Part shown: positions 12,535-51,318 of the stretch, in pieces
Numbering within the stretch: the first letter of the stretch is position 1
Layout of the letters: each line of letters starts with the position of its first letter
Assembly (NCBI GenBank): GCA_905178155.1
Contig: CAJINV010000011.1
Location: 2,838,485 to 2,902,484 of the forward strand
Reading direction: 5' to 3'
DNA from: Amoebophrya sp. A120
Lineage: Eukaryota; Protista; Dinoflagellata
Length of the DNA: 64,000 bases
Program-made: the position numbers and the translations under genes
The notes under the pieces: model-generated
What the model was told of the DNA's origin: nothing
The model's input: only the letters and a program-made list of their open reading frames with translations
The model's database searches: none

Positions 12535-14407
12535 TCATATTTCCGCGAAAACCTTGTAGGGATTGAGAATTCCATTTGGATCCATGGTTTTCTTCAAACT
12601 CCGCATCAAATTTATCGCAGACGCGTTTTTTGAATACTGAATCGCATTCACTTTCATCAAGCCTATGCCGTGCTCCGCGCTGATGCTGCCATTGTATTTC
12701 TGCACCTCCGTCCACAGCCACGGCTCGAGCAAATCCTGGATCTTTGGGCTGAACTTCCTACTCGTCACGTTTAAATGGAGGTTCCCATCCCCCATGTGCC
12801 CGTACCCGACGATGCGGGTGGCTTGGTCGTGATTATCATTATTTCCGTCACGACCCTCAGTGCTGGACGATGTTGCAGTTCTTGCTGCGAACACACCGCC
12901 TTCGACTAATCTTTCCTCACACGCGCCCACGATTTTGTAGATGTCGGACAGGTTCGGCACGGAAACGTCATATTTGTAGGTGTAGCCATCGTGAACCAGC
13001 GCCTCGGCGATTCGTTCCCGCATCGCCCAGAAATCCTTTTGCTGCTGCTTCGACGCGGCAACGGAACCGTCGGTAATCATATCAAATGCAAATATGTCTG
13101 GGTCTGGAAAGGACGGGATTTGTGATGCTAGCTGTGGACCACTACCAGACAAAAATCTGTATTGCAAGAGAGGCGAAGGAGCCTCAGAGTCAGACTGTTG
13201 CCACCCGGAGTGGGCATTTCTCATGCAGTATAGGAATGAGCAAACCTTCGCGAAAGCCAAAGCTGTCATGCTAGAGCATGCATCACAGGCACCGGGAGCC
13301 ATGTACAATTTGCAGCATGACAAACCCCCTAAATCTTCCAGACGCAGACCCAGACATATAAATTTGCAATGCATAAATCAAATCGCTTGACGATTCCAAA
13401 AAGGATTCCAGCTTCTCCTGGTCATGCTCGCCGTTCCCGCCGCTGGTTTCGACCAGCACCGCGAAAAAGTTTTTGTCCTCTTGTGGGTCCTCCAAGCTTG
13501 TTGCTGGAAAAAACTCTGGCGGCTTCAATTTCAGATTCTCGCTTGTGACCTTCACGCACCGACTGTCGAAGAATTCGAACGCGGAGAGAATTTCCCCGAG
13601 CTGCTCGCGTGCTTTCTTGAACAACTCCACACAGTCGTTATAGGAGCGAGCGCAGCAGAGTAACACGTTCACATCGTTCGGCAGCACCGGGCACTGAAAC
13701 GCCGCTTTCGTGATCACCCCGAGCGTCCCCTCGGAGCCGATTAACAACTGTTTCAAGTCGATTCCCGTGTTGTCCTTTTTGTTTCGCGACAAAACATCCA
13801 CAATGGTCCCGTCCGCCTTCACGAACTCCAGACCGAGGCAAGAGCCGTGCAGGTTTCCGTACCGCAACAGCCGCAGCCCGCCGGCGTTCGTGGCCAGGTT
13901 GCCGCCCAATTGACAGCTGCCCTTCGCGCCCAGGTCGAGGGGGAAAAGAAGTTCTTTCTCATTCAACTCGGCGTTTGCCTGCTCGAGTATTTTTCCCGCC
14001 TCGAAGACCGCAACGCCCGCCTTTTCGTCGATCTTGATCGTCTTGTTCATTTTCTCCATAGAAAGCACCACTTCGTCGAATACGGGCACGGACCCGCCGA
14101 CGAGGCCCGTGTTCCCGCCCTGGGGGGTCACCGCGAGTTTCTGCGCGTTGCAGTGTTTCAGGATTTTGGAAACCTGTCGAGTGGAACCCGGCCGGATTAC
14201 ACACTTCGATTCGCCTTTTACAATCCCCAGCCAATCCTGGTTGTACTTCGTTAAGTCGTCGTTGTTTGCCGCCGTGAAAACGTTGGCCGCGCCGCAAATC
14301 TCCTGGAATCTTGCAATGTCGGGTGGCTTAAGCTCGTTGAAGAGGTTGCTCCGCTGCAGATTCGCAGGACGACCGAAACGACGGAGGGACGAACAACGGA
14401 GGAACAT
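12535..14407 (-). CDS. D2HGDH: D-2-hydroxyglutarate dehydrogenase (FAD-linked), 2 exons
   Basis: PQGGNTGLVGGSVPVFDE, DLGAKGSCQLGGNLATNAGG, GHMGDGNLHLN, GSISAEHGIG, DPNGILNPYK; junction SSDLITDG restored across the 13080-13375 element. Confidence 0.92.
13080..13375. mobile_element. TIR introner, family A, in D2HGDH
   Basis: tat...ata ends; direct repeat aatca at 13075-13079 and 13376-13380; no register gives a GT start or an AG end. Confidence 0.92.
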
Positions 14408-15500: not shown

Positions 15501-18500
15501 CTACAGATACTGCACCGCCGCCTTCGTGTCGGCGAGCACGCTGGCCATGGTTCTCCTGACCTCGTCGGAGATCACCCGGCGCAGGTACTTCTCGAAGTTT
15601 TCGTGCTGAGCCGCCTGTGCCGCTTTGGTGTTGACGTTCAGGGCGTGTTTCAAAGTTTCAATTTCCAACCGCGCCCGCGCGACGTCCTTTTCGATGGTGA
15701 GCATTTGCGTCGAGTTCACCGGCTCGCGTACCTGCATGGCGGCGCGCACCAAGTCGTCGATCACGATTTCGCCGCGGTTGTCCACGTCCAGGATGTTGAA
15801 AAGTTCCTCCTGTTTCGCCGTGGACCCAAACGCCTGAGCGACGTACTCCGCCGGGGCGTCGGCTAACTCCTCCCGGTTGATGGTACCGTTTCCGTCCTTA
15901 TCCGTGTCGTGGTACAGCTTCCGGACCATGTTATCGAGTGCAAATATGTCTGGGTCTGGAAGATTCGGGGCTTGTCATGCGCATTTTGCATGACCCGTGA
16001 GGTCTGTGATGCTGGTGCTAGCATCACAGATTTTTTGAGAGCTTCTTGATGCTAATTACGCATGAGAAATGCCCTTTCTGCGTGCCAAGAGCTGACTTCT
16101 CTTGCTGCTCATGCAACACAGACATTTTTAGAATCCGCAGACAGCATTACAAGTTCCACTCTTCCAGACCCAGACATATTTGCAATCCATACATGTCCAG
16201 GTTCCGCATTTTTTCCTCCTCGATCTTGATCATGGCTTCCTCCTCCATGTCGCGGGAAATCTCGACCACGTTGTCCACGATAATTGCGGTAACCAGGTAT
16301 GCTGTGCAAAAATATCGTACTCGTAGTAATTGCAATCATGCATGTCAAGCTAAATCCGCACTACAAATTTTATTTCTCATGCAGAGGAAATTTGTATATG
16401 CATCTATACGAGTAGGTACGATGCTTTTGCATTGCATACCAGGTTGAAGATCGCCATGTTGGTCAGCAAAATGAAGCACACGAAAAACAACCCCAGGGCT
16501 GGGGCGTCGTTCATCTATCAAGTGTAAAAGTGTCTGGGTCTGGAAGATTGCAACTTGTCATGGTAAATCTGAAGCATGCAAAAATCTGTGTTGCATGAGC
16601 GCCAAAAGCTGCACACTTTTGACCAAGTTGGAAGGGAGTTTCTCATGCAGGATAGGCATGACAGAGACCTCGCAGACTCTGTCATGCTACGCCCCGCATT
16701 CCAGACCTCATGGGGCATGGAAAATCTGCATGACAAGTCTACACTTTTCCAGACCCAGACATTTTTGCATTTGCTATCATCACCAGCCGCGCAATGTAGC
16801 CCCACTGTTCCAGCGTCATGATCTGGAACAGGGTGAAGAACGACCCGAGCAAAGTGCCGAAGTACTTCTTGACCTCGTGGTCTTGGAAGGTGTCCCCCTC
16901 CTCGCAACAGTCTTGCCCAATCAAGCGCGTGAGAAACATGCCGCACATGAACAGGGCGACGCCCAGCAACACGCCCGTCCAAAGCAGCGCCCGGAAACTG
17001 CCGATAATTCCCTTGGCTAACAGGACGAGCTCCCGCAGGAAACGGAACAAGCGAACCAGCCGCAGGACGCGCTGTGATAGATCAGATAAGGAGATGACCA
17101 TAAGATTCTTTATAGCGCTACCACTCGAAATTAAAATTATGAGAGAGCTCGCAAAGAAAATAAACTGAACAGCTTGTCTTCTACGCGATGGGACCAGTAG
17201 TATAGTACCAAAAAGAAGTTATTCTCATAATGAAAAAAAAAACATAAATCATACCACAAGCCTGAGCAATCGGAAGATCCGCAAGACCGTAACCGACCGC
17301 AAGTCGCTGTCTTCGTCGGCGGCCGCGAACCTCAGGACCCAGGTGTCCAAAACCCCGACCGTGACGAGGAGCAAGTCGAAGCAGTTCCAGATGTCTCGGT
17401 ACCACCCGCAGGGGGCGTAGCAAATGCGCAGGAATAACTCGAAAAGAAATATCACGTTGAAAAAGGAGTCCGAAATGAATATTGTGAGGAAAAATCCCCC
17501 CTCCCCATATCCAAAACGAAATTTGTGTTGCTGTATTTGAGTACACAAATCGACTTGTATTGCTAGAAGGCCAAGAGACGCAGCTGCTCCCTCGTTTGCA
17601 GGCAATTTGTCATGCTGTTTTCCGTTTCCAGTTGCTTTCTGTCATGCTAAAGGCGCAAGGCTTTCCAACGCCAGCCAGCACTACAATCCGCATCTCTTCC
17701 CTTCTAGCATGACAACATGATTTGTGGTCACAAATCATGCTACACAAATCTCCCTTTCGATATGGGGAGGGGGGATTTTTCATTTTCATAATGAACCAGC
17801 CGATGTCGTCCTCGTTTATGAAATGCAAAAGTGTCTGGGTCTGGAAACTTGTGATGCAAGTCAGTCAATAGGAACAAATGCACTGTAATGCGCCGCCAAG
17901 CATGACAAGTTGCTTCGTGCTTCTGTGCTGCGTATCCCGCATGAGAAACTGCGTTTTTGCATGACAGGCGAGAGAGGCTGTTTGTCACCACGCAACACAG
18001 ATTTAAGGGCCATGCCAGATCAGCATGACAAATCTCGCAATCTTCCAGACCCAGACATTTTTGCATTTGATATCGTTCGCCTCGGTCCGGTTGTCTGTCT
18101 CGATCGCTAACACCAGTGCATTATCCTGTGTAAAAACGCCCCCAAAACCCAGAATTGTCATGCAAATACGCAATGACAGGAACATTTGCAATGCGCATCT
18201 CCATGAGAGGCATTTCCAGTCGTGTTTTGCTGGCATTTGTAATGCTGTAAACAAGATGAGAAAGTGGCTTTCTCGTGCGGCTTTCCTTGCTAGCCAGCAC
18301 TACGCTGCAGATGGAAACTTGTCATGCAGAACTCCCGAAACTTGGGGATTTGTGTTGCAGACTTCCCATCTTGACTATGGTGATGTGGGGACGTTTTTAT
18401 TACATGTGATATGCATTCACCAAAATCATGCAGGCAAAGAAGATGTCCGCTTGCGGGCGGGAAATCCATTCCACGCATCCCTTTTCCAGGCCGAGCGTCA

Positions 18501-18690
18501 CGAGAACGCGGCGAATCGGGCCCTTGGCTCGCTCCGCCTTGAGCGCTTCCGCCAGCGCCTCCTTCTCTCGGCGGTTTGCCTCCACCCGAACGCGGATCTG
18601 GTCCAGATCCGTCACCGAAAGGCTTTTGGTCGGACCGCTGGTAATGCCACTCTCCTTCTTCTTCATCGCTGACCTGCCACCCATACCCAT
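15501..18690 (-). CDS. Single-domain (6-TM) voltage-gated Na+/Ca2+-type channel with C-terminal EF-hands, 8 exons
   Basis: S3 WNCFD, S4 LRIFRLLRLVRVLRLVRLFRFLREL, filter FQIMTLEQW, S6 FNLVTAIIVDN, EF-hand DTDKDGNGTINREEL; six introners plus one GT-AG intron (17072-17254). Confidence 0.88.
15932..16191. mobile_element. TIR introner, family A
   Basis: Direct repeat catgt; junction NLDMVRKL in frame. Confidence 0.9.
16298..16438. mobile_element. TIR introner, family B (gcaaaagtatcgtac core)
   Basis: Direct repeat ccagg; junction FNLVTAI in frame. Confidence 0.9.
16516..16776. mobile_element. TIR introner, family A
   Basis: Direct repeat tcatc; right end reads cta instead of ata; junction LVMNDAP in frame. 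Confidence 0.9.
17480..17790. mobile_element. TIR introner, family C (aaaaatcccccctccccatatc core)
   Basis: Direct repeat atgaa; junction GWFISDSF in frame. Confidence 0.9.
17817..18072. mobile_element. TIR introner, family A
   Basis: Direct repeat tcgtt; junction EANEDDIG in frame. Confidence 0.9.
18122..18411. mobile_element. TIR introner, family C-like (aaaaacgycccca core)
   Basis: Direct repeat tgcat; junction ILVNALVL in frame. Confidence 0.88.
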
Positions 18691-21426: not shown

Positions 21427-21468
21427 GTACTAAACTCGGAAGACGTGTGGGTACGCCAGGTGCCGGCC

Positions 21469-22376: not shown

Positions 22377-22550
22377 TTAAATAAGTACAAATGCATATGC
22401 AGACATATTAGACAAAAATGGAATTTGTAATACCCTTAGGCCCCTTAAAATGCTATTGCTAGTAAAAGATACATGCTCGGCGAGGACCAAGTGCGAGTGC
22501 ATACTTACTAGAAGAAAAGAACAGGAGGAGGGACCACATCAGGGAGGAGG

Positions 22551-32435: not shown

Positions 32436-35400
32436 TCAGTCCTCGTTTTATCCCACGAGAAAAGTGTTACAGTTACACATTTGTAGGCAATTCAGCAACA
32501 CAAATGTCCCTGCATGAGAGAGAAAACTTGTAATGCAGAAATCCTACGGGAAAACACCTATGAAACGAGGCTTCTATGCATATCCGGCATGACAGAGCTT
32601 GTCTGTCTTGCTTGGCCTGCAACACAATGTGTAACTGTAACACTTTTTTTTTGCAATACGTTTTCGTTTCCACCCTCGGAAGGCACGGAGTCCTCCTCAT
32701 CGTGTAGATCCACTTCGTCCACAGCATCGACGAAATCCTCTTCATCATCGACGTGCACACCAGCAGCGGTGGATGTGGCTCCTTCGCAGAGATTTGAGGT
32801 CAGCGCCCCCGTAGCCGTAGACGTTCTTGCTGCATCAACTCGGAGTTCACATGCGCCGACGCTCGGTTCTTGTCCTGTGAGACCACTGGTGCTCGTCAAA
32901 AGCGGTGCCAAGTGAGTCGGGTGCGGCGCGGCGCTCGCCGCAAGCAAGGTTGGGGGCGCTGCATGTTGTGTAGGTACGAATCGGGATGGTGCAGCAAGGT
33001 GGGCATCAGGTATTGCACTGCCACCTGGTGCTGTATTCTGCATTGGCTTGGAGCCTTGATGTAGTTGCCAAGGTGTTATTGCAGTCATACTACCAGTACT
33101 AGTTGAATTTGTGCCGTTTCTGGCGCTCTCCGCCCCGCCCCCTGCAACTGCTTCTAGTTTTGTAGCGGGGACGACTACTGGCTGAACAACGGAAAAAGCA
33201 GGAGCGGAGGGCCGCGTGAGTTTGTCTTCACATGCAATTCTTTCGTCCTCCACTTGCATACTTGTTTCAAGGGTCGCCGTGCTAGTGCCGCCACTCTTCA
33301 TCTCAGCCGTAGTATTTTTGCCGAGGACGGTCGTATGTTTATTCGGGAGGACGGTGCTTGCGACATGCTGCCCGGCACGACCTTCCTGCTTCGCGTTTAT
33401 TCCTGTTCCTGTTTGCATCAAGTCCTCTCGTGAAGAAGATGTCGTGTAATAGCCCGGCGCAGCGGATTTTAAAATCGCACTGCGGCCGTGCGCACGCGGA
33501 CCAGCAGGAACTTGCTGCTGGCCTTGCTTTTTCGCCGGCTTGCTGTTGCTGTTTGGAGCTGCACTTGAAGCAGGCTTCACATACAGGTCAAAGACCACCA
33601 CAAGCGGTTTATGGTCGCTGCCTTGCTGCTCCTATCCTCTGCAAATGTATCGCACTCGCAGTAATTACAACCAAGCATGACAAGGCCCACCTTCTAATAT
33701 CTGATCTAGCATGACAAATTGTATATTTTCTTGAAAAAATTTGTAATGCAGTTCATACGTAGTACGATGCTTTTGCAATGCATAGCTCCGAAACGACCAC
33801 AATATCCAGCTCATCCACGTGAAGCTGGTCGACGGCGCCCCCGCGTGGCTGGAACAAGAGAACCCGGTCTGCCGCCGCGGGGAAGTGAAACCTGAGAAAA
33901 GGGAAGATGAACCCGTGTGGTTGTGCAATTGCAACCAGGTCAAAATTCTATTCAACGTTTATACGTTTTCACATCATGCAGCAGAGGATGACGCGCCGCA
34001 ACTCTCTCTGTCCCACTGCCGCTTTGATACAACATCAGCAATTTCTTCGTACCTTTTGAACCGCTTTCCCTCGTCGGCACGGTCTCTGTAGAGAGCGCCT
34101 GGCCCCTCAAACGCGGAAATTCGGTCCAGGGCGGCGGCGTAAGCGTCGCGCGGCTCTCCGTTTGCAGATGAACCTGTATTTGTGCAAGAAGAGTTCTTGT
34201 CTACCTCGAAATGCTCGGTGTTTGAAGAAAACGACACCACAGCCGCGGACTGCTCGTAGTAACTGCCGCTGCGCTATCAAATGGAAATATGTCTGGGTCT
34301 GGAAATTTGGAATTTGTAATGCTAGCTTTTCATACCTAGGAAATCTGTACTGCATAACCAACAAAAGTCGCGGCCTCTTTTGTACACAGTTTCTCATGCG
34401 GGCTGCCTATGAGATTTTGTTCTGCAAAGTTGTCATGCTGGGCTGCATTCGAAAGTGTTTCCATCATCCACATTCTAGCATCACATTCACAAGTTTCCAG
34501 ACCCAGACATATTTGCAATGCATATCCGCGTGCGCCGGTCCAGGCTGTTCGGTTGGTTCAACACGTGTGCCATGTTATCCTGTGCAAAAGTATCGTACGC
34601 GTATAGATGCAAGTCTTGCATTACAAATCTTTTTATTAGGGCAAATCCGCATGACAAATTCCATTTCTCATGCTAAGGAAATTTGTATTGCAATTTATAC
34701 TAGTACGATACTTTTGCAATGCATACATGTCTTCCACGGACAGCGGGTGTTTCTGCTCGTAGTTCTCATGAAATTTGTAGGTGACCCAGTGCTGGGTCCC
34801 GCACGCGGTCGAAAGGTCAATCCAGTTGCCCGTGCCCTCGACGAGGCGATTGGATATCGCTGCGCAGTACCGGCGGTCCCGCAGGGTCTCCGTTAGCAGG
34901 TCCTTCACAACCAATCGGCCTTGTTGTTTCGACGTCCCATACGTGCTGGTGTTCAGAGAAGACTTAAACTGGTGGTGGTGGTCCTGCGGAGATGTAGTTG
35001 AAGCAGTCGACGCGACGGCTCGCCCTCCGGCATGAAAGTTACCACCACGGCGCTGTTGTGGCGCTGCGGAAGTACTCGAAGTTGTAGTAGAAGCCCCGCC
35101 CGATGGACCACGACTATGTTGCATAGTTATTCCCGGATCGAACAGAAGAAGCGTTCGGGAGTTTACATCTCCCGAAAGCATCACCAGTGTGTCATTGTCA
35201 AGCATCCCGGCCTCGGCGGCGCGCGCCAGCATCCGTCGGAGGTTCCGCGCCATCACATACTTGCAGCTTTCCAGGACGTCATTGTTGCCGCGCGAAAGAG
35301 CATGCTTTTTCTCAGGCTGCGGCTGCGGAGGAACTGCATGTGAAGAACCAGCCTCGTGCGCACGTGCAAAGTTCGATGGAATGCCGTTGACCTCACCATT

Positions 35401-37668
35401 GCGTGGTCCAGAAGTACCGTTAGATGCGGTAGAAGGGCCAGAGCCGCCACTTTGGTAGTTGTAAAGGTTTTGACGGTAGAAGTCTGGCGGCTCCGGGACG
35501 ACCATAGTACGCGGCTGGTGCGGCCCATGCTGATACTGTGAGGAGCCAGCCGGAAGCGGCCGTATCCTGTCTGTACTACTTGGATGGACCGAAGTGGAGG
35601 TCCCTGTGTGGTTCATCTGATTGTACAACGACGAGGCCGTCGACCCGTTTATCGCAGATGTTTCCCCAGATAAACTCGACGTAGCCACTGGTGCGGCTTT
35701 CTTTCCCCTATCATCTACTCTAGACCGAGAATCAGAACCTCCCGCAGATGAACAAGACGAAGACGACGCAACAATATGATCTTCCGGCGCAAAATGACTA
35801 CTCCCGGGTACGCAGTGGGGGAAGTATTCTTCTCCGTTGCGCCACCCGACGTCGTACGTGTTTTGTTCGAGATGCCGCGCGATCTTTCCGATCGGGAAGT
35901 GGGCGCCGATGCACAGAATTTTCACCTTGCTGTTGCGCAGCCGGAGTTCCTTGCCCGAGAAGGCCTTCTTCGGGTTTGGAATGTTCTCGTGTTCCGGGCA
36001 AATGCCGAAAAACGTCTTCGGCTGTGGCTGGAACACGGAGCTCTTCGCGAGGAGCAAGGTTTTCAGATTTCCGTTCCAGTTGGTCGCCAGTTTCGCGGTC
36101 AGCGACTGCCACATGCCCCCGCCGAATTTCTCCTGGTGCTCGATGCGCGTGCTATGAGAGTGCACAACTCCCCGTCCCCCTCATTTGTATGGCAAGAACA
36201 GCAACACAAACAACAGCAGCTAAGTGCCTTCCGCATGACAAACCGGACATGGATTGTAGTCCTGTGTGAGTGTCCGAAACTTGTCATGCAAAAAGTGCTT
36301 AAAGCCACCAAGTAGATTCGGTATTTTGCATTACAAATGAGGGGGAGGGGGAGTTGTGCAATCTCATACGCGTTCGTCTGCTCGCAGATGTCCAGTCCGC
36401 GCTTGTCCGCGAGCTGCTTCTTCCACTTCTTCACAAAAGGGGTCAAAGCGCTCTGCGTCTCCGCAAAGGAGAAAAAGATCAGATCGCGGGTCGTCGCAGG
36501 GGACTCGATCATGTCAGATGAGGATGCTTCTAGGGCGGGGGGCATCTCGAAAGAACGACCTCCAAATCGTGAAACATTGCTCGCGGGTCCCCTTGGGTTT
36601 CTTGACATTTGGATTTGGTCAACAGCATAATCATGATACACGTGTGCACTACTACTACTCCCGTTGGTGTTTGTCCTTACAAATTGCGGTTCAGAATTTT
36701 GAGAGCCTGGTGGCTGTTGATGCTGCGACGACGTGTAATCAACACGTCGATTCGGCTGCTCGTGCTGCAGTGCAGTGTGGTCTGTACCACTTCTACCGGC
36801 GCTCCACCTTCCATCCGGCGGAGGGCCTCCCGATGTGGTGCGAGTGGTCGTGCTACTTGAGGTGCGCGACGCGAACGATACCCGAGGACCCGGGAAAGGA
36901 GCATGGTGCTGTTCTGCGAACAAGATCGAAGATGAGCGACCTCCTGTCTTACAACTAGTACTCGAACACGAAGACGCGGTCGACGACACCCGCGCGAGGC
37001 GGTGAATCCCTTTCTTGAACTGCACCTGCTCTTCTTCCTCGTCGGTGGACGACACAGACGAATCCGAATCCGTAGAGGAACCGCCTCTACTTTTATTCCC
37101 TCGTCCCGCATAATACAGCCGATCCCCACTTCCATGCACCGTCCCCCCACCGCGGACCGACACGATCGAAGCAGTGAGACGACGGCGCGGGTTCTCGTTC
37201 GGTAAACCAGAGGTGGAGTTGTGGTCGTCTCCACTAGGAGGGGAGGCGGAAGTTGCAGCCAAGCGGGAATGATTCGACGGCGGGGTCGTGTGCGTAGTCT
37301 GTGATGTTGTAGTGGCTGTGCCTCCACCTGCAGACGGTGGTTTTCTGCAGCTTGAGCGTCCCTGGCTGGATCTGGTCGGCTCCTTCACTACATTTTTGCC
37401 CCTACTCGCCTATCCAGGAAAAAAGACCGATACCCATCCATTTTTTGCATGACAAATACAGGATTTTATGCACGTTTTGCATGGCAAATTGGCTGGGGAT
37501 TGGTGTTTTTGTGGATATCGCCCCTGGGTCTTCCACTTCCACGGGAACAGGCACCAACAGGTCGGTGATCTCCAAATTACTGTTGTTGCCCATGTTGAAA
37601 GTGTACACACAGCAGCGGATCCGCTCCCCTAAGTCGTGGTGGTCGTGGAGGCCAGCATCATGCTCCAT
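32436..37668 (-). CDS. Inositol polyphosphate 5-phosphatase-like (EEP fold) protein with long low-complexity inserts, 8 exons
   Basis: Motifs in the expected order: VYTFNMGN, CIGAHF, SGDVNSR, VTYKF, PAAADRVL, SDHKPL; six introners plus GT-AG intron 33892-34052. Confidence 0.8.
32449..32658. mobile_element. TIR introner, family D-like (aaaagtgttacagttacac core)
   Basis: Direct repeat cgttt; lies two codons before the stop. Confidence 0.88.
33633..33784. mobile_element. TIR introner, family B
   Basis: Direct repeat gctcc; junction VSEQQGSDHKP in frame. Confidence 0.88.
34275..34524. mobile_element. TIR introner, family A
   Basis: Flanks tgcgc / tccgc (1 mismatch); junction TRSGSY in frame. 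Confidence 0.88.
34576..34725. mobile_element. TIR introner, family B
   Basis: Direct repeat catgt; junction EDMAHVL in frame. Confidence 0.9.
36153..36368. mobile_element. TIR introner, family E (tgcacaactcccc.tccccctcatttgta core)
   Basis: ~37-bp TIRs; flanks cgtgc / cgcgt (3/5 match); removing element + 5 nt restores TNARIEHQ. Confidence 0.85.
37411..37517. mobile_element. Short TIR introner (107 bp)
   Basis: tatcca...tggata ends; direct repeat tcgcc; junction PGASRGKN in frame. Confidence 0.85.
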
Positions 37669-38680: not shown

Positions 38681-41600
38681 TCAGAACTGCAGCGGAATCA
38701 GCGCCTCCTCGATCGCTCCCGTGGGCGCGTCTGCGGTGATGTCGACCACTTTTTTCAAGCGGGTCAGTTTTGATTCGTTATAAATCAAATGCGACATCGG
38801 TCCGCGCAGCTTCGCCTCGCGTGGTGTTTCCAGCGCTGCAAGCAGCGTGTTATTCTGGTTATTCATTTTCGAGCCGTTCCTACCTGCGTCGTCGACCAGA
38901 CCCTTGCTGCTCGTCGTCCCCCGCCGTCCACCCGCGATGGTGGCCCGTGGATTCGGGCTTGCCTTCAAAAACGCGGGCGTCGCCTGGGCCATAGAGAGGC
39001 TCGTCCGCGCGTTAGCCGCCGGGCTTTTTGCAAGCGAGCCGGCGGCTGTTGTTGTTCCCGCGGAGCCGGGCCTTTGTACTACTACATCATCTTCGTCTCC
39101 CCATGGGTCGGCTTGGTTCAGCGTGTTGGTCACGACTTGAAACTGCATCGCGGGTAAGCCGTCGCGGCACCGCTGGATCATATCGCGGAGGTCGGCGTCG
39201 GAAGGAAGGTGGAAACAGGGCCAGGCCGGGCATTCCCACACGACGGACGGAGCCTTCAGCTCCGCGTTTCCGAGGACTTCGTAGGCCTGTGGTCGTAATA
39301 TTCTTTTCGTCTCAAAGTCAAATGTTTTGCCTATCAGGTTCAAATGAGAAGTAGCACGTTGAAAGAGAAATAACTTCCCAAGGATCTTTCTCTTTGAACA
39401 ATAGGATCTTTCTCTTTGAACAACAAAGTTGACCTCAGCATTAACACGCCTTATACCTCCCTCTCAGCTCGCCACTCTCGAATTTCGCCCCACCAGTCCT
39501 CTAGTTGCTGTGCGTAGCCCCGCAAATGCGGCACGAGGTAGTAGCGCTTCATCCGGAGTTCTTGGGTTATGAACGCCATGCGCACGTCCGCCGGCTGCTC
39601 CAACGCGTGCAGGTGAGCCTGTTAGAGTCAGTCATGTTTTTGTATATGCGAACATCCGCTGGACTTCAAATGAGCATATGAACTTCGCAATCGTCATCAC
39701 GTCATCTGTGATATCGTGATCAAAAATAGCAATACATACCGAAAAGTCCATATCCAGATGATCCCCGGCACCACCCCTTCCCCCCTTGGCGTGATGTGGT
39801 TTCTCCTTAGAGTGCGTGACACTCCTTCGTCTCTGCCCGGTGGTCGCGGCCCCACCGTGGTGTGCTGCGGTCGTTTTGCTTGTGTTGTTATGCTTGTCCT
39901 TGCTTCCCTGCGCGCCGGTTGTTGCTGTGCTATGCTCTTTTTCCTTACTGCGCCTTGACGTGCTGACGCCGTGGTTCTGGAGTCCAGCGTGGGATCTCAG
40001 ATCGACCGAGGCGGTTGGATTATGATTGTTCTGATAGAAGTCCTTGTCTGCTGTATGTGTTGTTCCTCCTGAAGCATTTCCACCCGCCGCCTCTGCTTTA
40101 TTCTTATGGTCCTTCTTCGCATGGTGGTGGTGGTGGTCCTTTTTCGGCATCACTGTCCCTCCGTGCATCGCCACCAACTCCTGCAGCAAGATCTCGTGCT
40201 CCATTTCCAACCATCTCGCCGCAGTCTCCTGTCGGTGCCGTTCGAGTTTCTCGAAACTGCGGCGCCAAAACCGCTGTATTTTGATCATCGCACCGTGAAA
40301 TTTTCGGATGGTGATCATAAACTTCCCGCCCTCGCTCCACAACTTCATGCAGTGAAAAATCGCCGCCGCTTTTTTTCGCCGCAGCATTACCCGGGCCCGC
40401 AACGCGATCGGCCGTTGGATCTCGGCAAACCTTTTTTTAACGTAGTACTAACAGTGTTAAGTGACGACGGTGAAGTAGTATTTTTGGAAATGTTGAGTCG
40501 GCAATATTAATTTGAAGTGACGAGGCTAAAGTGATTTTTTCCATATGTTGCGTCGGCAGTTTTTTTGAAGGGCGAACTACAAATCATTATTCCGTAATCG
40601 TATACAGCGCTGCAGGACGAAGCAGTAAACAGAAAGACGAAAAGAGCATCTGCCTAAAAAAAACTTTACCTCGCCATGGTCGCGGGCTGTTGGAAATCCT
40701 TGATGAAGGCTTCCCAGGCGATGGCCTGCCGGCGCTTTTTCCGGAGCATTGATCCCACAGAAAAAAGCAGCAGGGAGGGCATATTTGTAATGCAAAAACA
40801 AGTACACAGAAGAATCTGTCATGGGCGGCCGCATAGCATGCTGTTTAGGATAATACGCAATGCAGATTTCTCTGTATATTCATTTTTGCATTACAAAAAT
40901 GACCTGCCTGCTTTTTTCTGTGTGCTAGCATTACCCGCAACGCCATGGCGATTTCCTCGCGCTCGGTCATTGCAACGGGCTCCTCTTTCTGTTCCCGGAG
41001 CTGGGTGTGCTTGCTGTCCATCTGGTCGAGGGGGATGGTCAGGGCGGTCAGCATGTACCAGAAAGTCGTAACGAGGTTTGTTTTCAGCTGTACATTCGTC
41101 TTGTCATGGAGAAGGTCTTCTTGGAGACTGATAAGTAGTGTTTTTCGAATTCGAACAAAGAGGAAGAACAAGAAAAACAAATGCAAATCATTTTACTGGT
41201 ACAGCAGATATTAAATTCGCACCGCGTCGCTCTACTTGTGCCTTCACGAGGCTGAAGTACAACTTGCACTTACCTGATCGCCAAAGGATTTCCCTCCGTC
41301 ATATTCGTCCTTTTTATCCCCGCAAACGCAAATTTCCCGTCCGCCCCCGCTTTTGGCGACAAGAGACTCGCTCGAGACGTCGGCGACAAGGGTGACCGCG
41401 ACGACGCCGGGGACGCGCTGGCTCCACCGCTATCCTGTGCAAAAGTATCGTAAGTACTCGTTGTGTTGCAATCATGCATTACAAATCCTTTTCTTAGGGT
41501 CAATCCGCATTACAAATTTCATTTGTCATGCTGAGGAAATTTGTCATGCATTTATAGGAGTACGATACTTTTGCAGTTCATAACCGCCTCCCTTCATGGA

Positions 41601-43494
41601 TCTCGGCGATCTCGAGCGCTCCCGCTTCAGCGAACTGGCGGACCGCTTCACGTACTCCCGTTCCCACTGCATGATCTTTTCCTGCATCTGCTCCACCTTC
41701 CGACACTGCGTGTCGAAAATTCGCTTGTTCAAAAGCGCGTTTTGCACCCGCAAGCGGTGCTTTTTCGCGTCGGGTAAAAACTGTTTCAGCGACTCGGTCG
41801 ATTGGTTCTTCGCCATGAAGTCGCATCAAGAGCAAATATGTCTGGGTCTGGAAGAATGCATGTTTGTCATGCTTGGCTGGCATGATTCTCAAATCTGTCA
41901 CGCACGTTACCCAAGAGCCCGATTTGTCTGTCATGCAGAGCCGCAGTTTGTCATGCAGAATAGGCAACACCTAGAAGGTGCTCAGAAACTTGTCATGCTG
42001 AGCCAGCACTCGTGGCCTCCTCAGGATACGCCACTCAGCATCACAAGTTTCCAGACCCAGACATATTTGCAATGCATAAGTCGTGTTGGTGAGTGATCTT
42101 CCAGGGTAAAGGGGACAGCTTATTCAGCTTTAACGGCGGGAGGTCGATAAAATTGTTGTTTCGCGACGAGCTACTGTTCGAGTGGCTACTGCCTGCTCCG
42201 AAGAAAGAGGAAAAGTCGTTGCTGGGGTCGAACTTCGTGCTGGAGGTCCTGGAAAGCGTGCGCCGCGGGGAATCACCGGCGGAGTTTAGAAGGGTTGGGT
42301 AAGAGGAGGTGCTGGTCATACCTGTGGAGGATTTCGTGATGTGCTTCGGCGTGTATTCAAAATTTCTGATTCTACAGAACAGAACGATATACAGTCTGGC
42401 ACTTCTATATATCCGTTGTGGGGCGCGGCATGGATGGTACTATTCAAAAATTTGCACCGAAGAAACTTTAACTTTTCTCAAAAACTCTGTACGCGTCACT
42501 CCAAACCCGCTTTTCTTGTTCCCCGAGCCGCCACTCGGCGTGGAGGAAGATTTGTTGCTTTTCACTTTTCCGATCGGCGTATTGGGCATATTGTCCTTCT
42601 GCGTTCCCCTTCTTTCCATTCCCGTATAATTACCGCCGTTCTTGGGCCGAAAGCCCCCGCCGGTGCTGTTTGCCGAGCCGGGCTTGGTCAATTTCCCGCT
42701 GTTTGTGAAGCTCGCGTGCGTCGTCAGCGTCTGCCGGATCCGCTTCGCGAGCCGCTCCGGTATCGGATTCTCAGACGTTACATTCTCATCTGTTACATGA
42801 TTTGTCATGCAAAACGACCATAAGCCGCCACACGATCAAGGTGCTTCGCATGACAAATTCTCGAAGGGCTAAACACCAACTGAATCTGCTTCAAATTTGT
42901 AATGCGAAGCGCGCAATCTTCCCGCGTTCACTTTTGCTGTTCTTGCATCACAAATCCATGTAACAGTTGAGAATGTAACAGTTGAAAACACCATATCCGG
43001 CTCGTTTTCCTTCGGAATCCCGTTGGCGACCTGCTCCAAAATTTTCGTTTTGGACGGCGAGCTGCCGTTCCGGTTGCTGTTCATAACGTATGCATTGCAA
43101 AAGTAACGTACTAGTTCTAGTATGAATTGCATTACAAATTAGCCCAGCATTGGAAATGGAATTTGTAATGCTGTTTTACCTTGAGAACGAGATCTGTATT
43201 GCATAAATGCAATTACTACGAGTACGATACTTTTGCACAGGATATAACGAGCGTGGCGTCGATCCCGAGTTCGGACTCCGGACAATTGTACTTGGCCACG
43301 TAGGGGTTGTGCAGCGGCGACCCGGGCGGGCTCCACTGCGCGTTGAAGGTCAGCTGCGCACGGGCCTTCGGGGAGCCCACCGGCGCCACCGCGGTTGTGG
43401 AGGTCACACTCCATTCGGACTGCTCGTTCCGGTTGCCGCCGAGGTGGAGCAGCAGGCCGGGGCGCTCGCGGCCCCGCCACGAGGTACTAGTCAT
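38681..43494 (-). CDS. Hypothetical protein with an IQ-like motif and predicted coiled-coil stretches, ~11 exons
   Basis: Exons join in frame across five introners and five GT-AG introns; MIKIQRFWRRSFEK IQ-like motif; start uncertain. Confidence 0.65.
40751..40927. mobile_element. TIR introner, family G (cacagaaaaaagcag core), degenerate ends
   Basis: Direct repeat gcatt; ends gat...cta; junction LRVMLRKK in frame. Confidence 0.8.
41431..41582. mobile_element. TIR introner, family B
   Basis: Direct repeat accgc; junction MKGGGGAS in frame. Confidence 0.9.
41824..42078. mobile_element. TIR introner, family A
   Basis: Direct repeat agtcg; left end reads cat instead of tat; junction QHDFMAKN in frame. 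Confidence 0.9.
42761..42995. mobile_element. TIR introner, family F (gttacattctca.ctgttacatg core)
   Basis: Direct repeat tccgg; junction ENEPERLAK in frame. Confidence 0.9.
43089..43244. mobile_element. TIR introner, family B (opposite orientation to 34576 and 41431)
   Basis: Direct repeat taacg; junction TLVMNSN in frame. Confidence 0.9.
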
Positions 43495-43985
43495 GAGGCT
43501 GGAGTGCGGGGTGGTGCAGGAGAGGTACTCATGGTGTTGTCGTGGGGAAACCGGACCTTCTGTGGCGCTTCTAACGAACCTGCTCTTCTACTGATGCACT
43601 AGCTTGTTGTCCGGGCAAAAATACTGCTGGACGCGCTGAACCATCACTCCGCGCAGCATTGCGCAGCACTCTGACCACGATGGCAAAAATGCTCCTGATG
43701 TGCTGTGGTCCTGCTCTCTAGAACTGCACGCTTTCATCTAGAATAGGCATTCGGTGGTGCAGCAGAAAACCTGCTCCTCTCAAACCAGCTCCGTGATGTT
43801 ATCTGATCGGAGTTGACAAATTAAACACTCCACAGCGTAAAAATGCTGGCTCCGGTGACTGGCTGTCTTGTACTTGAATGACTTTCCTTCGTGCTTTTAG
43901 AAAGAGAAACCTTTTTTACATTATAAGCTTAGATAGATAGTATGCACTTCTTGCTGTACAAGGTGCTCGTATTGTTCATTCTCAT

Positions 43986-45011
43986 TCATCGGTAGATTTT
44001 CATACAAGTTTTGAACAGGTCTTCCAAGTCGTATTTTCGGCATTCTGCCGCGAGCAGGTTCATTTCGTCAGGGCCAAACTCGTGAAACAGGCCCAGGGGT
44101 AATTTTCGCAAGCTGTTGATCGTTCCTGTCGCTAAACACTCGTCATCTGCCTCGACAATCTCCTCCCCGCGCACTGCGAAGTATTTCCACCGGAGTCGCT
44201 GAATTGCATTCACATACGCGTCGCACGCGTCCTCCTCGCCCTCAATTAGGACCACCCCAGGGTACCCGATTTTGCTGAAGCCGGAAAGGTTCAGCTGTCT
44301 CGCGCACTCGATAATGGCCCGTCTCTTTCCCGGCGCGCGAATGTGGTGCGAGTACATCAGCCGCCGCCCCAGCTTTTTCGCTTTCGTGATGGTCTGTCCG
44401 GTGCTGGTTACCTCCGTGTTGCCAAAAAAGTTGTCAAAAACTACAGAACTGCTGTCAGCATCGTCATCATCGAAGTCTGTCGCTGCTTCCACTTGCCGCA
44501 ACTGCTCCTGGTCGTGCAATAAATCTGTGGCGTGCTGCGCTATCTCCAGTAGCATCTCCACCGGCTCGTCGCGGGACGCGCTTTGCTCATAGACGAACGC
44601 TTGGAGCGCAGCGTCCAAGACGTCCTTTTGGGCCACTATGGTGCCCGGGCTCGACGCTTTGTCTCGACTTCTTTCTCCATGGTCGAGCCACACCAAGGGA
44701 ACGGCATCCGGGTCGAGAAGGTAACGGACTGGCAGCAAGGCGCGCAAGGTCGTTGTGTCGTTGAGACGAAGCTTCACGTCGGGAAGTTCTTTTAGAACGG
44801 GCGTGAATTCAGAAGTTCTTGCGGTAGATGAATGCTCAGGCGCCTGTCGGCTGCGTGCGGCGCTAGAAGGGTCGCTAGTCGTGGTGCTGATTCGGCGTAA
44901 TTCCGATAGGGCATCGCTGTCCGTGGAAAAGTCGAGCCCATAGATGCTCTGCAAAGCGTCAAACTCGTCGACGACGCGACGAACAGCTTCGAGGATTGCA
45001 GGAGGATGCAT
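43986..45011 (-). CDS. RWDD2: RWD domain-containing protein 2-like (DUF1115)
   Basis: N-terminal EFDALQSIY (RWD); C-terminal RRLMYSHHIRAPGKR...LSGFSKIGYPGVVLIEG...IQRLRWK. Confidence 0.82.
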   Translation of the reverse strand: MHPPAILEAVRRVVDEFDALQSIYGLDFSTDSDALSELRRISTTTSDPSSAARSRQAPEHSSTARTSEFTPVLKELPDVKLRLNDTTTLRALLPVRYLLDPDAVPLVWLDHGERSRDKASSPGTIVAQKDVLDAALQAFVYEQSASRDEPVEMLLEIAQHATDLLHDQEQLRQVEAATDFDDDDADSSSVVFDNFFGNTEVTSTGQTITKAKKLGRRLMYSHHIRAPGKRRAIIECARQLNLSGFSKIGYPGVVLIEGEEDACDAYVNAIQRLRWKYFAVRGEEIVEADDECLATGTINSLRKLPLGLFHEFGPDEMNLLAAECRKYDLEDLFKTCMKIYR

Positions 45012-45179
45012 TTTGCGGGGGGAGTCGTGATTAAGAGGCGCTGCCCCACCGCAGCTCTTTCGTCATTGATATTGTTCGACTTCTACTATGAGCTTGCGTC
45101 TAGCGCAGTGCATTGCTTAAGCAACAAGTATAGGTTTGATTTGTCATAGATTATGATTGTCTTTTTTGTTCGAGTTGCG

Positions 45180-47160
45180 TGCAAGAAGGCTGAACACTGA
45201 ACGGGCCGCGAAACCAATGCGGAGGCCCTTCGCCTCTGCATCAGCGTCGAAGCTGCCTGAAAGCCTGCACGCATTTTCCTACAGATATTTCGCTTCTTCT
45301 TTTGACGTACGTGGAGCAACGGCGATAGCCACCCGAAGGTGCTTTGTGCCTGCTGCGCACCACAGGCAATGCCTGTTGAAAGATGGCATGGTGAGCAAGC
45401 CCACCACCAACCGCAGGCGCATCGGCAAACAATGCATGCCCACCAACCGAGGCGGGCGCGCAGGTTGCAAAGGCTGCCTGGCCAACACAATCACTGCGCC
45501 GGGCGCCAAACGAGTCGCGCAATGAGTGTTTGCTTGGGCCGGGCAGCTGCAGGGGGTGCGCCCGCGCGGCCTGGCGGTGGCTGGCATTCCGACCGCGCGG
45601 CCTGGAGCATCCTCTCCCGCCCTGCGTGCCCGCTCCGCATGTAGTGGATTTCGCCGGCTTCGAAGCGCTTCGTCTCGGCGTGCCCGAATGCGCCATGCTT
45701 GGGGGCGCCCGTGCCCCCACACCGGGGACGCCCATCACAGAAGGGCAAGAATCGCCGACAGTGGGCCTAGCCTCAGCGCTGGACCTTCATCCCGGGGCGC
45801 CCGGGCGCCGGGGGAAGCCGGCGCGCCAAGTCGCTGCCGCCGCGCGCGGGGATTCCCCCCGCGTCCGTGGTGTGGTGCTTCGCGCCTTTTGCGCGGCCTG
45901 CCCCCCGATTTCCCGACGGCCGAGGCTCTGCTCGGTGCATGCCCAGGCCGTTCCGGCGCGAGTGCGCTCGATGGCGCCTCCGGGCCCCAGCGCTTTCATT
46001 GGCCTTGTTCCCTTTCCGGTGTCCGTCTGCAGTCTCACTCTCACTCCTGCTGCACAACCAGCCTGGCTGTGGCTATTTTCCGAACCTCGGGCGGCCCTCG
46101 GCCCAGACGATAGAGGCCCAAGCTGAACGCGCCAGCAGGCCGGGCCGGGTCGTTACATACCGGCACGCAAAGCCACTGCGGGTTGCCGACTCAGCCCAGA
46201 ATGAAACCGCGGCGACACGCGCGCAACCAGCTTGCCGCGCGCGAGAAAGGGGCCGACTCGGGAGGGCCCCAGGGGTTTGCTTCGTGAGGGTCCTGCGGGT
46301 TGAAAAATGACAAAAAGGGTGGACAAAAAGCGGGGGCCTCGCGCAACAAGGTGGGCAAAAAGGGCGGACGGTAAAGATTAAACGGGCCGCGGCGGGCGGT
46401 GAAAATTACGCGAACCGTCCGAACCAGGCGGGCGGCGCGGCCCCGGCGCGCGTGCGGGCCGGGCTGGGCTACGTGACGGCGTGGCGCCCAGCTTGATGCC
46501 GCGGCGCTTGCTGCTGCGCTTGCCGCCTGAAATAACTCACCCGGATGCGCGCCTGGCTGCCGCCGACGCTCAGCGCCTGCGACTTGCACCGGGCTGCCCC
46601 CTGCAAGCCGCCGAAGGAGGGGCCTGCTGGCGGCTGGAGCCTGTGGTTGAAAATTACCGCCCGAGACAAATCGGCCACCGCGCCTTCCCCGCCCCATCGC
46701 AGCCGCTTCCGCGGCAAAGGCGGGCCAACGTTCTGCCCCGGACCGCGGGCAGAAGGTGGGCGCCGTGGTCCGGCAGCAATGAAAAGACGGCCGCCGCCCC
46801 GGTTTTGGCGTGGCCGGGGCCCAATGCGCCCCACCGCCGCTTCTGCCTTTGCAGACAAAGGCCGCAACCAAACACCAGCGCCCTGCCTTGTAGGCCTCCA
46901 CTGCGCAGCCCTGGCGCGCCATCAGTCCCGGCGCTGTCGCTCTTGGCCCGCTCTGCGCCGGGCTCTCGCGCTCCTCCACAGTGGTGAGAGGCAAACTCAG
47001 ACAGCCCGGAGGCTTCAGCCCAGAGGCTTGCAAGCCACCCGCGACGAGACAGGCCGGCATCGAGTGCACGCAGACGAAGTCCACGCCCATTATAATAATC
47101 CGGCCGCCGCCCATAGTTAGCCACAGCCGGGCCGGGCGGAGCGAGCCCGGCACTTCCTAC
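45180..47160. other. GC-rich intergenic island, probably a repeat or inserted element
   Basis: Abrupt rise in GC relative to other intergenic DNA; overlapping ORFs on both strands, none with a recognisable product; boundaries approximate. Confidence 0.4.
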
Positions 47161-47786
47161 CTGTGAATGCGAACAACAAACAAAGCTGCTTGCGCCCTCC
47201 TCGCTGAAGATCCTTTTGAAATTTTTTTTCGGCAAGAACACGTAGAAGATAAATACAACCTCGTCTTGCAGAAGAACGCGCAAACCATCGCCTGCGCTAG
47301 TACAGGTGAGGTACTTATTCATCCTTTTCCGTAAATTCTTCTTTAGTTTGCATTGCCATCTGCGTGTAATGTCCAGTGTGATGAATTGCCCCAACATGAT
47401 TTTTCTGTTGCTCTTTGTGTGGAGCCTGTGTCGTCATTCATTTTCTTGCAACCAAAAAAAAGCGATAGCCTTAGCCACCATGGGTGAAATAAATGTGTAA
47501 GCAATAGATTCGTGAAAAGCGTTTTTTATTACATTCTGCTATGAATGTGAATGTCAATGTCAACACGACTGTGTAACTGATTCCAAGCGTCAACATCTGC
47601 AGCAAACATTGTCATCTCTCTCCCACTACGCATGATCTTCGAACCAGCCTCAATCACTAGGACGGAAGACGGAGCGCAGCGGAACGATGATGTGCAGCTG
47701 GTGGAAGCTCAACAACAGACGCCGGTAGTAGACAATTGTCGTTTCTCCTCTTGTCCCCGACTCGTTCCACTGAGACCGTTCCCACC

Positions 47787-50700
47787 TTACGCGCCCGCGA
47801 CCACCGCGGCGGCGATCTTGTCCAGCAGGTGGATTTCGCGAATGTAGGTGCTCGAGAAGTCTTTCTGTTGCTTCTGGATGCTGATTTGCACTTCGCCGTC
47901 CTTCACGGAAAAGTTCACGTCGGTGCACACCTTCGGGAGACCGGGGAGGAGAGACGGTCCGCCAGCGTCGCCTGATAACAAGCAATGGTTTAGGATTTAG
48001 GAAAGCCGAAAGATCCAGATTGAAATTTCCGAGCTGTCTGGTAGTTGCTGAAGTGGAAAAACATAGCAAATTGGCAAAAGAAGTTTCTCGTATAATATCA
48101 TACTTGTGTCCATGACGATCTGGAGGTTTTTTGACTCGACGAAGGCGAGGCGTTCCTTGCACTCTTCTTCGTCCCGGAAGTTGCAGAGGCTGGTTAATTT
48201 GGCGAGGGAGATTTTACTGTACATGCGCAGGACGTTCCTCACCCACGGGACGTACCTCTGGCTCATCATCCGCCCCCAGAAGAGCTCCCACTGTCGCTTG
48301 TGGCCCTCCATGGAGTCCTGGCTACCCGTGAGGTCCTCGTCCAGAATGGTGACAAATCGCGGCTGAATCGCGTTGAAAAACTCGACTAATTTCGCCATCC
48401 ACGGCTTCGTGTTCATATCGGTTTCCTGTATGAATTTTTGGGGTTTAGTTATAGGAGGGCAGTTTGCTGCTTTAGCTTTGGAAGATAACTGTACTTTTGA
48501 CACCGACATACAGATCGATATGATCTGTGCCGACATGACTCCTGTAGGCAGTGGAAAGTGCAGCTGGTGGACCAACGCAAGGGAGAACAAGAGACTGAAG
48601 GCTTCTTTCCCTTGCTCTCTCAAGAATGCATGTTACATTTTAGCATTAGCAAGACATCGGTTCAACATTAACATCAATTTCATGTCTCCAAAAGATACCG
48701 GTCCCGCGACGTCTTTGCTGCCCCAGGTTTTCAGAACCTTAATGTCGTCCGCGTACTTGTCCGCGCACCAGTTGGCGACGTTTTCTTCCGGGATGCACTG
48801 GTACCCGTCCGGGGAGAACACCTGACAGAGGACGAACAACCTGACCATGCGGTCCTGCTGTTTCATCAGCTGTCCGGCGTACTGTTCCTGCAACGGCGGG
48901 AACCGCTGCAACTTCTGGATGAAGTGAAGGGTCTGTTTTGGTCGGGTTTGGTTTCGATTGGACATTCATTTGTATTTATCGCCAGGCTACTTCACAACTA
49001 CATGCACTCTGGGTCTGGTATCTTGCCATACTCATTTCTCAACGGTGCATTGAAAGAACTGAAGAAACAGCATGAGAAATTCGTATTCGTAAACACAGCC
49101 ATACAATTTCTATTTTTACCTTGGACACCACGGAGAGGCAGTCGCTGTAGCGTTCGGACATGAAGAGAGAGAAGGCGACAAAGTAGCAAAAAGACACGTG
49201 CGCGGCGGGGCAGCGGTAGTAGAGCGCGTTTTCCCAGCCGAAGTCGAGCTCACCCACACGCTTCAGCGCAACGTCGTATTCACCAAGCATCAAGTGGTAA
49301 CGAACCTGCTGGATCTTCGCGAAGTAACCTGTGGCAATTCCAATTTTTGTGTTTATGCATTAGAAATGTTTTTCGGAAGCGAAACCAGCATTACAACAAA
49401 TTCCACTTGTCACGCGGAGCAAAGCCAAAGTTGTATATGCAAAAACCTAAATACCTAAGAATTTGGCTTGCTCGGAGATCCCGCTGACGTCTCCCTCGTC
49501 GATGCCCTTTTCGATGCGGATAATGGCGTCGATGTTGCTGCCCATTACTAATCGCTTCAAGGTGTAGAACACTTCGCCGGAGTCGAAGACGTTTTTCTGC
49601 TCCTTTACAATGTCGAAGTCCATCAAGGTTTGCCGATTCACCGGCACGGAGGCCTGGCTCGGGTCCTGCTCCAACTGCTTTTGTAATTTCGCCCGCTGCT
49701 GGGTGACCTTGGCCTTGAAGAAGCAGTAGGTGGTGTAGTGGTACAGAAATTCGTCCAGCATCTCCCACAACCAGCAGACGGGGATCACCTGTAATAACCC
49801 GGTGGGCGGCTGCTGTCCGTCGGAAATAGCCTGCAGGTCCTTGCCAACCCGGTCGAAAATGTCTTGGTAGTTGTTCCACGCGTCCACGCGATCCATAGCG
49901 GTCACATGCTTGTCCAATCTGGTAGATAGTTTTTAGATTCCATTTGTCATCTACGTACTGGCGAACATTCCTGCATCCAGAAATATTTCCCGCGTTGGGT
50001 TTTTTGAACTAGGAAGTATCCTCGAGCTCGAGACTCTAATATGCATGAGAAACAAATTCATAGTAAAGTCAAAGAAAGTTACCTTGAGAACAAGTGTCGG
50101 TAGTAAAGTTCCTTGTAGAGAAGGTGCACGTTGTGGTTGTCAGAAAGGCAGGCGCGGGCATCCTCCAGAGACGGCCACTTCTGGTTTTTACCTGTGATGG
50201 AAGTAGATGTTGTCGCTTGCGGTCATCCATTTTTATGTTCTTACGCAAGTAGTACTACTCCCAGCATCAAAATATGCAACTACACAACAAGCACAGCAGG
50301 ACAAAATGTTGTTGTTGACTCCAAGAAAAATCATCATAGTACCGTGCTTCTGTCGAAAGATTCCCTCGGAGAGTTTTGGGTATTCCTTTACGAAAATATC
50401 CTCCACGGTGTCTGCTCTTGACTCCTGAACCGCCTGTGCAAAATCCTCGAGGAAGTTTCTAACCGTAATTGGCACGTCACCGTCTCCCTCACCCATCATC
50501 ATATCATCCTGCCCGCCGCGACCGCCTTGTCCGCCTAGGTTTGGGAAAAGAATTGAGTACTTTACTAGATAATTTTCGCAAAATTGAGTGGTAATACACG
50601 AATGCAAAACAGCTTCATCCATATTGCACTCGTCTCTTTCATCTGATCCTGATGCTGTTGATGTAATTGTAAATCTTGGCACTATAAAATTTATGGTCAA

Positions 50701-51318
50701 TACGTCCCCACTGTCCGCCCCTCTGGTTATTTCTTCTGTTGTCCCCGCCTCGGCTTTTGTTTTGAATTTTCTATGAACTGCAAAAGTATCGTACTCGTAT
50801 AAATGCATGACAAATTCTCTCAGCATGAGAAATAAAATTTGTCATGCTGATTTACCTTACGAAAAATATTTGTAATGCAAGACCTGCATTTATACGAGTA
50901 CGATACTTTTGCACAGGATATTTTCTGAAAGCCACCCATATCCTGCCCCATGTGCGCCTTGGAGGCCAGGTATCAAAAGGAAAAATCCCCCCTCCCCATA
51001 TCGTCTGAAAATTTGTGATGCGGATTTGTGACCTCAAATCCTGTCTGTCTTGCAAGAAGGCAAATCCAGAAAGCGTTCCGCATTTTTCAGGCGGTTTGTG
51101 ATGCTGTTTGCCTCAGAGCATACACGTTTGTCATGCTAGGCGCCTACGTCAAACCTCTCGGCTGAGGCTTGACATATGCCTGCATTCCTCTACTGCAAGA
51201 CAAATCTGATTTGTGTATGGAAATCCAGCATCAGAAACTTCGTTTCGATATGGGGAGGGGGCATTTTTCCTCATGATACCAAGTAGGCCTGCATCATTGC
51301 CTCTTGACTGTTGTCCAT
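47787..51318 (-). CDS. EIF3L: Eukaryotic translation initiation factor 3 subunit L, multi-exon
   Basis: LYKELYYRHL, WLWEMLDEFLYHY, MLGEYDVALK, YFVAFSLFMSERYSD, VRNVLRMYSKISLAKL, DVNFSVKDGEVQI; two 5' introners plus several GT-AG introns. Confidence 0.88.
50772..50920. mobile_element. TIR introner, family B (reverse-complement homologue of 41431-41582)
   Basis: Direct repeat ttttc; junction FQKIQNKS in frame. Confidence 0.9.
50971..51278. mobile_element. TIR introner, family C
   Basis: Flanks ccagg / ccaag (1 mismatch); junction YLASKAH in frame. Confidence 0.88.

Follow-up and report, generated by a model that had tools for sequence, protein, structure and literature searches.

The 64,000-nt stretch analyzed here (the window; contig CAJINV010000011.1 of the parasitic marine dinoflagellate Amoebophrya sp. 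A120, with all positions given in window coordinates) holds ~25 inverted-repeat elements with TAT...ATA ends, which belong to several families, and all genes identified in it lie on the minus strand. These elements are introners resembling MITEs (miniature inverted-repeat transposable elements), inserted in coding exons in both orientations about equally. In the window, the family of most interest, family A, comprises six copies, four in one orientation (16298..16438, 141 nt; 33633..33784, 152 nt; 34576..34725, 150 nt; 41431..41582, 152 nt) and two in the other (43089..43244, 156 nt; 50772..50920, 149 nt). All six start with TAT, end with ATA and are flanked by a perfect 5-nt direct repeat, the target-site duplication (TSD), located at 34571-34575 and 34726-34730 for the 34576 copy, 41426-41430 and 41583-41587 for 41431, 43084-43088 and 43245-43249 for 43089, and 50767-50771 and 50921-50925 for 50772.

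We verified that copies of opposite orientation are the same element. The 41431-41582 introner and the reverse complement of 50772-50920 can be aligned over their full length (84.3% identity, E ~5e-43). With 40 nt trimmed from each end, their cores align in the opposite orientation (z-score 10.9 versus 1.2 for the same orientation); since the core alignment survives trimming, the terminal repeats do not account for the homology. In 34576 and 41431 the TATCCTGTGC end is the left one, in 43089 and 50772 the right one, and the TATCCTG end of 41431 corresponds to the 3′ end of the minus-strand transcript. Both the full-length reverse-complement homology and the placement of these ends had been proposed in a preliminary description of this DNA, and both are borne out. 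The 41431 and 50772 introners are each predicted to fold end to end (z-scores -4.0 and -10.2, respectively).

Long minus-strand reading frames were restored once each element was removed together with one copy of its repeat. The eIF3L-like gene (47787..51318, Paf67 domain), which carries the 50772 introner in exon 1, a second introner at 50971-51278 and seven GT-AG introns, yields a 620-aa model when 5 bases are removed, and 40-61 aa when 3, 4, 6 or 7 are. A minus-strand frame of 969 codons (33974..37628) was restored by removing the introners at 34275, 34576, 36153 and 37411. The minus-strand EF-hand ion-channel gene (15501..18690) contains six introners, including the family A copy at 16298, and one GT-AG intron. 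Without these seven sequences, it corresponds residue for residue to the annotated protein P0125, an Amoebophrya sp. A120 protein by its source name, to which a channel exon is 100% identical, and its junctions at 15932, 16298 and 16516 show no indel in 9/9 homologues. Thus, the earlier claim that all junctions are in frame holds when the element and one 5-nt repeat are removed. Together with the annotated protein, these frames give indirect support to the absence of the elements from mature mRNA. In the minus-strand gene for ribosomal protein eS26, a family B introner (810..1170) has one flank that corresponds to residues 1-64 of solved eS26 chains and another that corresponds to 66 onward, pointing to exact removal of this introner.

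Two genes, the first of them probably, bring opposite orientations together. On the minus strand, a partial gene model of no known family (40670..43494), built on frame continuity, carries five introners (43089, 42761-42995, 41824-42078, 41431 and 40751-40927), and both family A orientations (43089 and 41431) therefore likely lie within one transcript; note that their placement in one gene depends on a single hand-chosen GT-AG intron (42322-42492) and that the model stops early at a guessed third intron. A cleaner case than that of the preliminary description is provided by the channel gene, inside which two copies of family B, at 15932-16191 and 16516-16776, point in opposing directions. A further family B-like introner (13080..13375), in the minus-strand D-2-hydroxyglutarate dehydrogenase gene, has a core oriented opposite to those of 810 and 15932.

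The earlier statement that all hosts are minus-strand fits these frames and is less secure for three of them: Pfam gave no match for the host of 34576, 41431 or 43089, so that their strand rests on frame continuity, and the local codon model is ambiguous at 41431, where it favours the plus strand by a margin of 2.3. Homologue searches with the eIF3L exon gave no useful match, and a Pfam scan of 126 flanking exon pieces gave zero elements with both flanks matched. PDB searches with the upstream flanks of two metagenome loci (L119 and L003) found no match either; consequently, no family A copy oriented as 50772 has its junction pinned by a homologue. No Rfam match was found in the window. An alternative genetic code was rejected, as standard-code models reproduce the annotated protein, and so were ciliate-type internal eliminated sequences, as the flanks are 5-nt duplications and not a single TA.

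We then extended the analysis to metagenome loci recovered by a family A end-motif scan, which returned at least 149 stretches of an estimated ~390, and of which 147 loci were used. A finder based on the inverted repeat and its duplication had 124 hits across 40 loci, against 0 in shuffled versions of them. Reading frames were called by a model whose training used unjoined frames, and 66 of the 320 unique elements received confident independent calls on both flanks; for 8 of these, the two calls disagreed on strand. In the other 58, the flank frames fit removal of the element plus 5 nt in 56 cases, where one third is expected, and were shifted in 2. Confident strand calls agree within a locus in 93/93 pairs, and retention of the element would be harmless in just 2/108. 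Over the window and the metagenome loci together, homology-defined family A copies are oriented 67:56 relative to the host transcript (p 0.37; 184 copies, with 58 lacking a strand call and 3 ambiguous), and both orientations are present in all ten largest clusters. In this sample, the count of sense and antisense copies, which the preliminary description called for genome-wide, is near even, and its observation of the same introner in both orientations in same-strand genes extends from the window (4:2 by our count) to the wider sample. The insertion phase is uneven, with the first TSD base at codon positions 3, 2 and 1 in 83, 55 and 37 framed copies, respectively (p 1e-4). Contigs of two other metagenome assemblies (L084 and L127) carry the end motif of family A too.

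TSDs were characterized on 338 copies bounded by homology, without use of the direct repeat. All five positions match in 248 copies, four in 67, three in 13 and fewer in 10; imperfect TSDs are tolerated in 80/338 copies (24%). Four introners of the window (22593-22876, 34275-34524, 36153-36368 and 50971-51278) have two differing 5-nt duplications. The TSD base composition tracks the same-phase exon background. Single mismatches fall at third codon positions in 22/32 cases (site share 0.36; upper bound of 0.53 if one copy is free, p 0.049), and with double mismatches included the share is 29/50 (p 0.27), which gives only a hint that both TSD copies are under coding constraint.

To look for splice signals, we examined the six possible cut registers of each element for GT-AG. 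Such a register is available in 8/182 elements, compared with 5/182 in the antisense control; in the framed set, it is available in 8/134, versus 4.7 ± 2.1 expected from same-phase exon positions. The relaxed G[TCA]-AG register occurs in 15/134 versus 13.8 expected, i.e. without the supply of sites found in Aureococcus- and Polarella-type introners. TSDs are thus unconstrained for splice sites. The final 20 nt of the 43089 introner contain no AG. Branch-point-like motifs differ with orientation (YTRAY in 5/67 and 13/56 copies; CTRA in 1/67 and 36/56), and none is shared by both orientations; note that this is a soft test, as the 10 canonical introns examined here are also weak in consensus. 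As for the idea that each orientation carries its own cryptic GT/GC/GA-AG pair near the ends, with the frame kept, we found no donor-acceptor pair common to most copies. Many copies oriented as 34576 do start with TATG[CA] and end with AGGATA, offering a G-AG pair that would leave 12 nt, and most elements have, by chance, some in-frame pair within 20 nt. However, this best built-in pair leaves a remnant containing TGA, whose stop-making phase is not avoided (4/13); the most shared stop-free pair covers only 14/30 and 8/20 copies; over all 182 elements, the antisense strand has about as many nearby pairs; the 16298 junction shows no insertion in the annotated protein or in the 9 homologues; and the eS26 junction is exact. 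The cryptic canonical-pair explanation is largely refuted, and we regard it as very improbable.

From the two orientations, the preliminary description had inferred that the removal signal is symmetric, being the foldback itself, which would argue against ordinary splice-site use. This reading is partly supported. A symmetric signal and a lack of ordinary splice-site use find support in the free TSDs, the absence of a shared cryptic pair and the exact junctions in conserved proteins. Orientation alone is insufficient: anything inside a terminal inverted repeat (TIR) reads alike both ways, and the introners of Polarella and Aureococcus work both ways yet use splice sites, as described in the available text of the report on them (10.1101/2020.10.14.339549). 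Moreover, the foldback and a linear repeat motif are inseparable by sequence. Read backwards, the 3′ logo almost coincides with the 5′ logo, and a terminal stem is predicted with probability >0.5 in 96% of 182 elements. In the pairing profile, which is partly shaped by the search pattern, positions 1-3 and 8-24 are paired and 4-7 poorly so, corresponding to a predicted end-to-end stem of 3 terminal pairs, a poorly paired 4-nt stretch and ~17 pairs. The transcribed strand is predicted to have a small stability advantage over its complement (mean -1.7 kcal/mol; 105 versus 77 elements; within-family permutation p 0.001, n = 170), and no interior G+T skew accompanies it. Evidence for the fold as the recognition signal is modest.

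Starting from the element anatomy, the two orientations, the exact frame restoration and the unconstrained TSDs, all directly observed, we lean towards a model read from sequence in which the introners would be removed by way of the predicted paired-end stem rather than GT-AG sites, leaving one TSD copy. The RNA-seq-supported introns of A120 that lack a boundary signature and a detectable U1 (Farhat 2021), and the knock-in tests in Euglena, both described below, point the same way. Insertion would be carried out by a DNA-transposon-like enzyme making a 5-nt staggered cut with little target or orientation preference. The stem of paired ends would then be recognized in the transcript, and a putative nuclease-ligase or stem-reading adaptor would ensure cutting and joining, such that the element and one 5-nt duplication are lost and the single remaining duplication copy stays in the message.

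Several observations weigh against this stem-based removal. Paired ends are expected in any MITE for transposition alone. The strand-specific test of G-U versus A-C mismatches in the stem gives 113:98 overall (p 0.34) and 53:32 in family A alone (p 0.03), the latter being one of many tests, and the 31 predicted pairs compared over 16 copies of family A show no compensatory changes. In family A, the first 25 nt include a donor-like GTA in 62/67 and 55/56 copies of the two orientations (117/123). One assembly supplied nearly all of the extra loci, TAT-like ends were a requirement of the finder, and one of the ten largest clusters is skewed 8:1. In the dehydrogenase gene, the junction is without indel in 25/115 homologues and 81/115 have two more residues nearby, so that it provides no clean test. 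Finally, A120 keeps nearly all spliceosomal proteins, according to Farhat 2021.

This last point, with U2, U4, U5 and U6 also present in A120 and U1 not found (Farhat 2021), favours a different possibility, unlikely in our view though to be taken seriously, that a modified major spliceosome reads a linear terminal-repeat motif (a TAT-N7-AAA start and a U-rich mirror end), the hairpin being a by-product of the transposon. The motif is common to the families and to both ends, in our logos and in the accessible part of Farhat 2021 (PMC7789003), the absence of within-family covariation fits such a reading, and the spliceosome of Fritillaria is described as removing MITE-derived non-canonical introns (PMC11282704, as far as its text was available). 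On the other hand, at least one boundary would have to lie in TSD sequence, which shows no constraint, the U2-pairing region is predicted to be double-stranded, and, within the limits of the soft test above, no branch-point-like motif serves both orientations.

The elements might also not be spliced at all, with the polymerase jumping across the folded element between the direct repeats, or excision occurring in DNA, or the ribosome bypassing the element; in one variant, the junction reads may partly be reverse-transcriptase artefacts. A hairpin between direct repeats is a classic template-switching substrate (PMC13149111, from the part available), the product matches that of a jump, i.e. exactly the element and one repeat are lost, and the excess of single TSD mismatches at third codon positions looks as if either copy reached the mRNA. 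Yet this excess fades when double mismatches are included, imperfect repeats are tolerated in about a quarter of the copies, six elements in one 485-aa gene demand a very high efficiency, no empty DNA site was seen, though there were no reads to search for one, and a pure laboratory artefact leaves the expression of the eS26- and eIF3L-like genes unexplained. We consider this explanation improbable. To a similarly low degree, we entertain a homology-guided join, hinted at by the same third-position mismatches, in which the hairpin would bring the two 5-nt duplications together and the message would be rejoined anywhere within them. This route, by RNA recombination or a polymerase jump, would need no donor, acceptor, branch point or direction; if true, it would amount to a genome-wide, sequence-blind neutralizing of any TIR transposon at tens of thousands of sites.

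The window elements are of the kind described as introner elements of A120 in the accessible text of Farhat 2021 (PMC7789003), with inverted repeats made of TAT, seven variable bases and three or more A, 3-5-nt direct repeats, a hairpin and co-oriented genes. Here, we found the TAT-N7-AAA repeat and a direct repeat within 3-5 nt, in unrelated host genes of an Amoebophrya genome. That text reports non-canonical introns supported by RNA-seq, with no boundary signature and no detectable U1 small nuclear RNA, and states that no cognate transposase was found in A120; outside its figures, we found in it no orientation count, TSD-constraint test or cut register. In the parts available of two further studies, Gozashti 2025 reports a 149-bp TIR family (fam17, 372 copies, mixed annotated boundaries), which is possibly family A, likened by description only, and clustered introners 5′ with 5′, and Gozashti 2022 allowed opposite-orientation matches and names Amoebophrya nowhere but in its reference list. 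A published count of orientations for Amoebophrya introners did not turn up in a literature search that excluded subscription papers and bioRxiv supplements.

Comparison with other systems, each known to us from part of the cited texts, separates the Amoebophrya elements further. The introners of Polarella glacialis and Aureococcus anophagefferens share TIRs, TSDs and the ability to form introns either way (10.1101/2020.10.14.339549). They differ in that the TSD or the end of the element supplies their splice sites, with constrained TSDs (GHN6, AGGH) and G-/AG boundaries, whereas Amoebophrya TSDs are free and ~5% of them allow GT-AG; in addition, the classes described there are biased to one orientation, whereas family A is near even. 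In Fritillaria borealis, MITE-derived introns also have TIRs, TSDs and non-canonical ends, but prefer AG-AC/AG-AT boundaries, follow a preceding TAC target and are removed by the U2 spliceosome (PMC11282704). As judged by analogy, the best functional counterpart is the nonconventional introns of euglenids, which likewise lack GT-AG, have an end-to-end stem (predicted for the Amoebophrya elements) and direct repeats and are proposed to derive from MITEs (PMC3935182; PMC12501133), and for which knock-in tests in Euglena speak for the terminal repeats having a role in splicing (PMC12501133). Searches of these two texts and of listings gave no match on the orientation of euglenid introns. This lineage is unrelated, and its signature (N3CDG...CHGN5-6|R) differs from TAT-N7-AAA; it was not found here, as the end logos read TAT[CG]...TGCAAA counted from the element end, the register that was scored.

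Other features of the window are as follows. The dehydrogenase gene, whose exon has its best matches in Amoebophrya A25 proteins, adjoins the channel gene (12535-18690), and their relatives P0009 and P0126 are numbered consecutively (g2635 and g2634), which suggests that this gene order is conserved in another genome; co-oriented gene blocks are typical of Amoebophrya genomes, as the available text of PMC7789003 reports. A family B copy at 21159-21426 has no convincing host frame and sits beside a duplicated stretch (21450-22573) with an odd repeat (22318-22573), suggesting that some introner copies need not be exonic. The element at 24504-24617 (114 nt) has TAT/ATA inverted ends and no duplication in register, and is perhaps damaged. 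In the eIF3L-like gene, the GT-AG intron at 49329-49454 has within it a core resembling family A (72% over 69 nt), possibly a decayed introner lying within, or converted into, a canonical intron. A long nested palindrome (58130-58361), whose 111-nt arms are 89% complementary, and another inverted repeat (58587-58885) are unlike the TAT-type elements. They are followed by a GC-rich tandem repeat (59024-61740) with a 1326-bp period and at least two near-identical full units, which has no Rfam or Pfam match. Short frames are numerous on both strands of a GC-rich (~60%) block between two genes (45100-47150), where Pfam gave no match.

Non-canonical introns make up about 65% of the A120 total, according to PMC7789003. 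The class of element is already known; what is new is the even split of orientations together with the free target sites, plus a test of the cut register, since RNA reads over the copies with imperfect TSDs would show in which register the cut is made. Opposite-facing copies within one gene provide an internal control for removal efficiency. Overall, even orientations and free target sites show that the introners of Amoebophrya, unlike other two-way introners, do not depend on the site of insertion for help; wherever in an exon they land, they appear removable, which would explain their spread to tens of thousands of copies.

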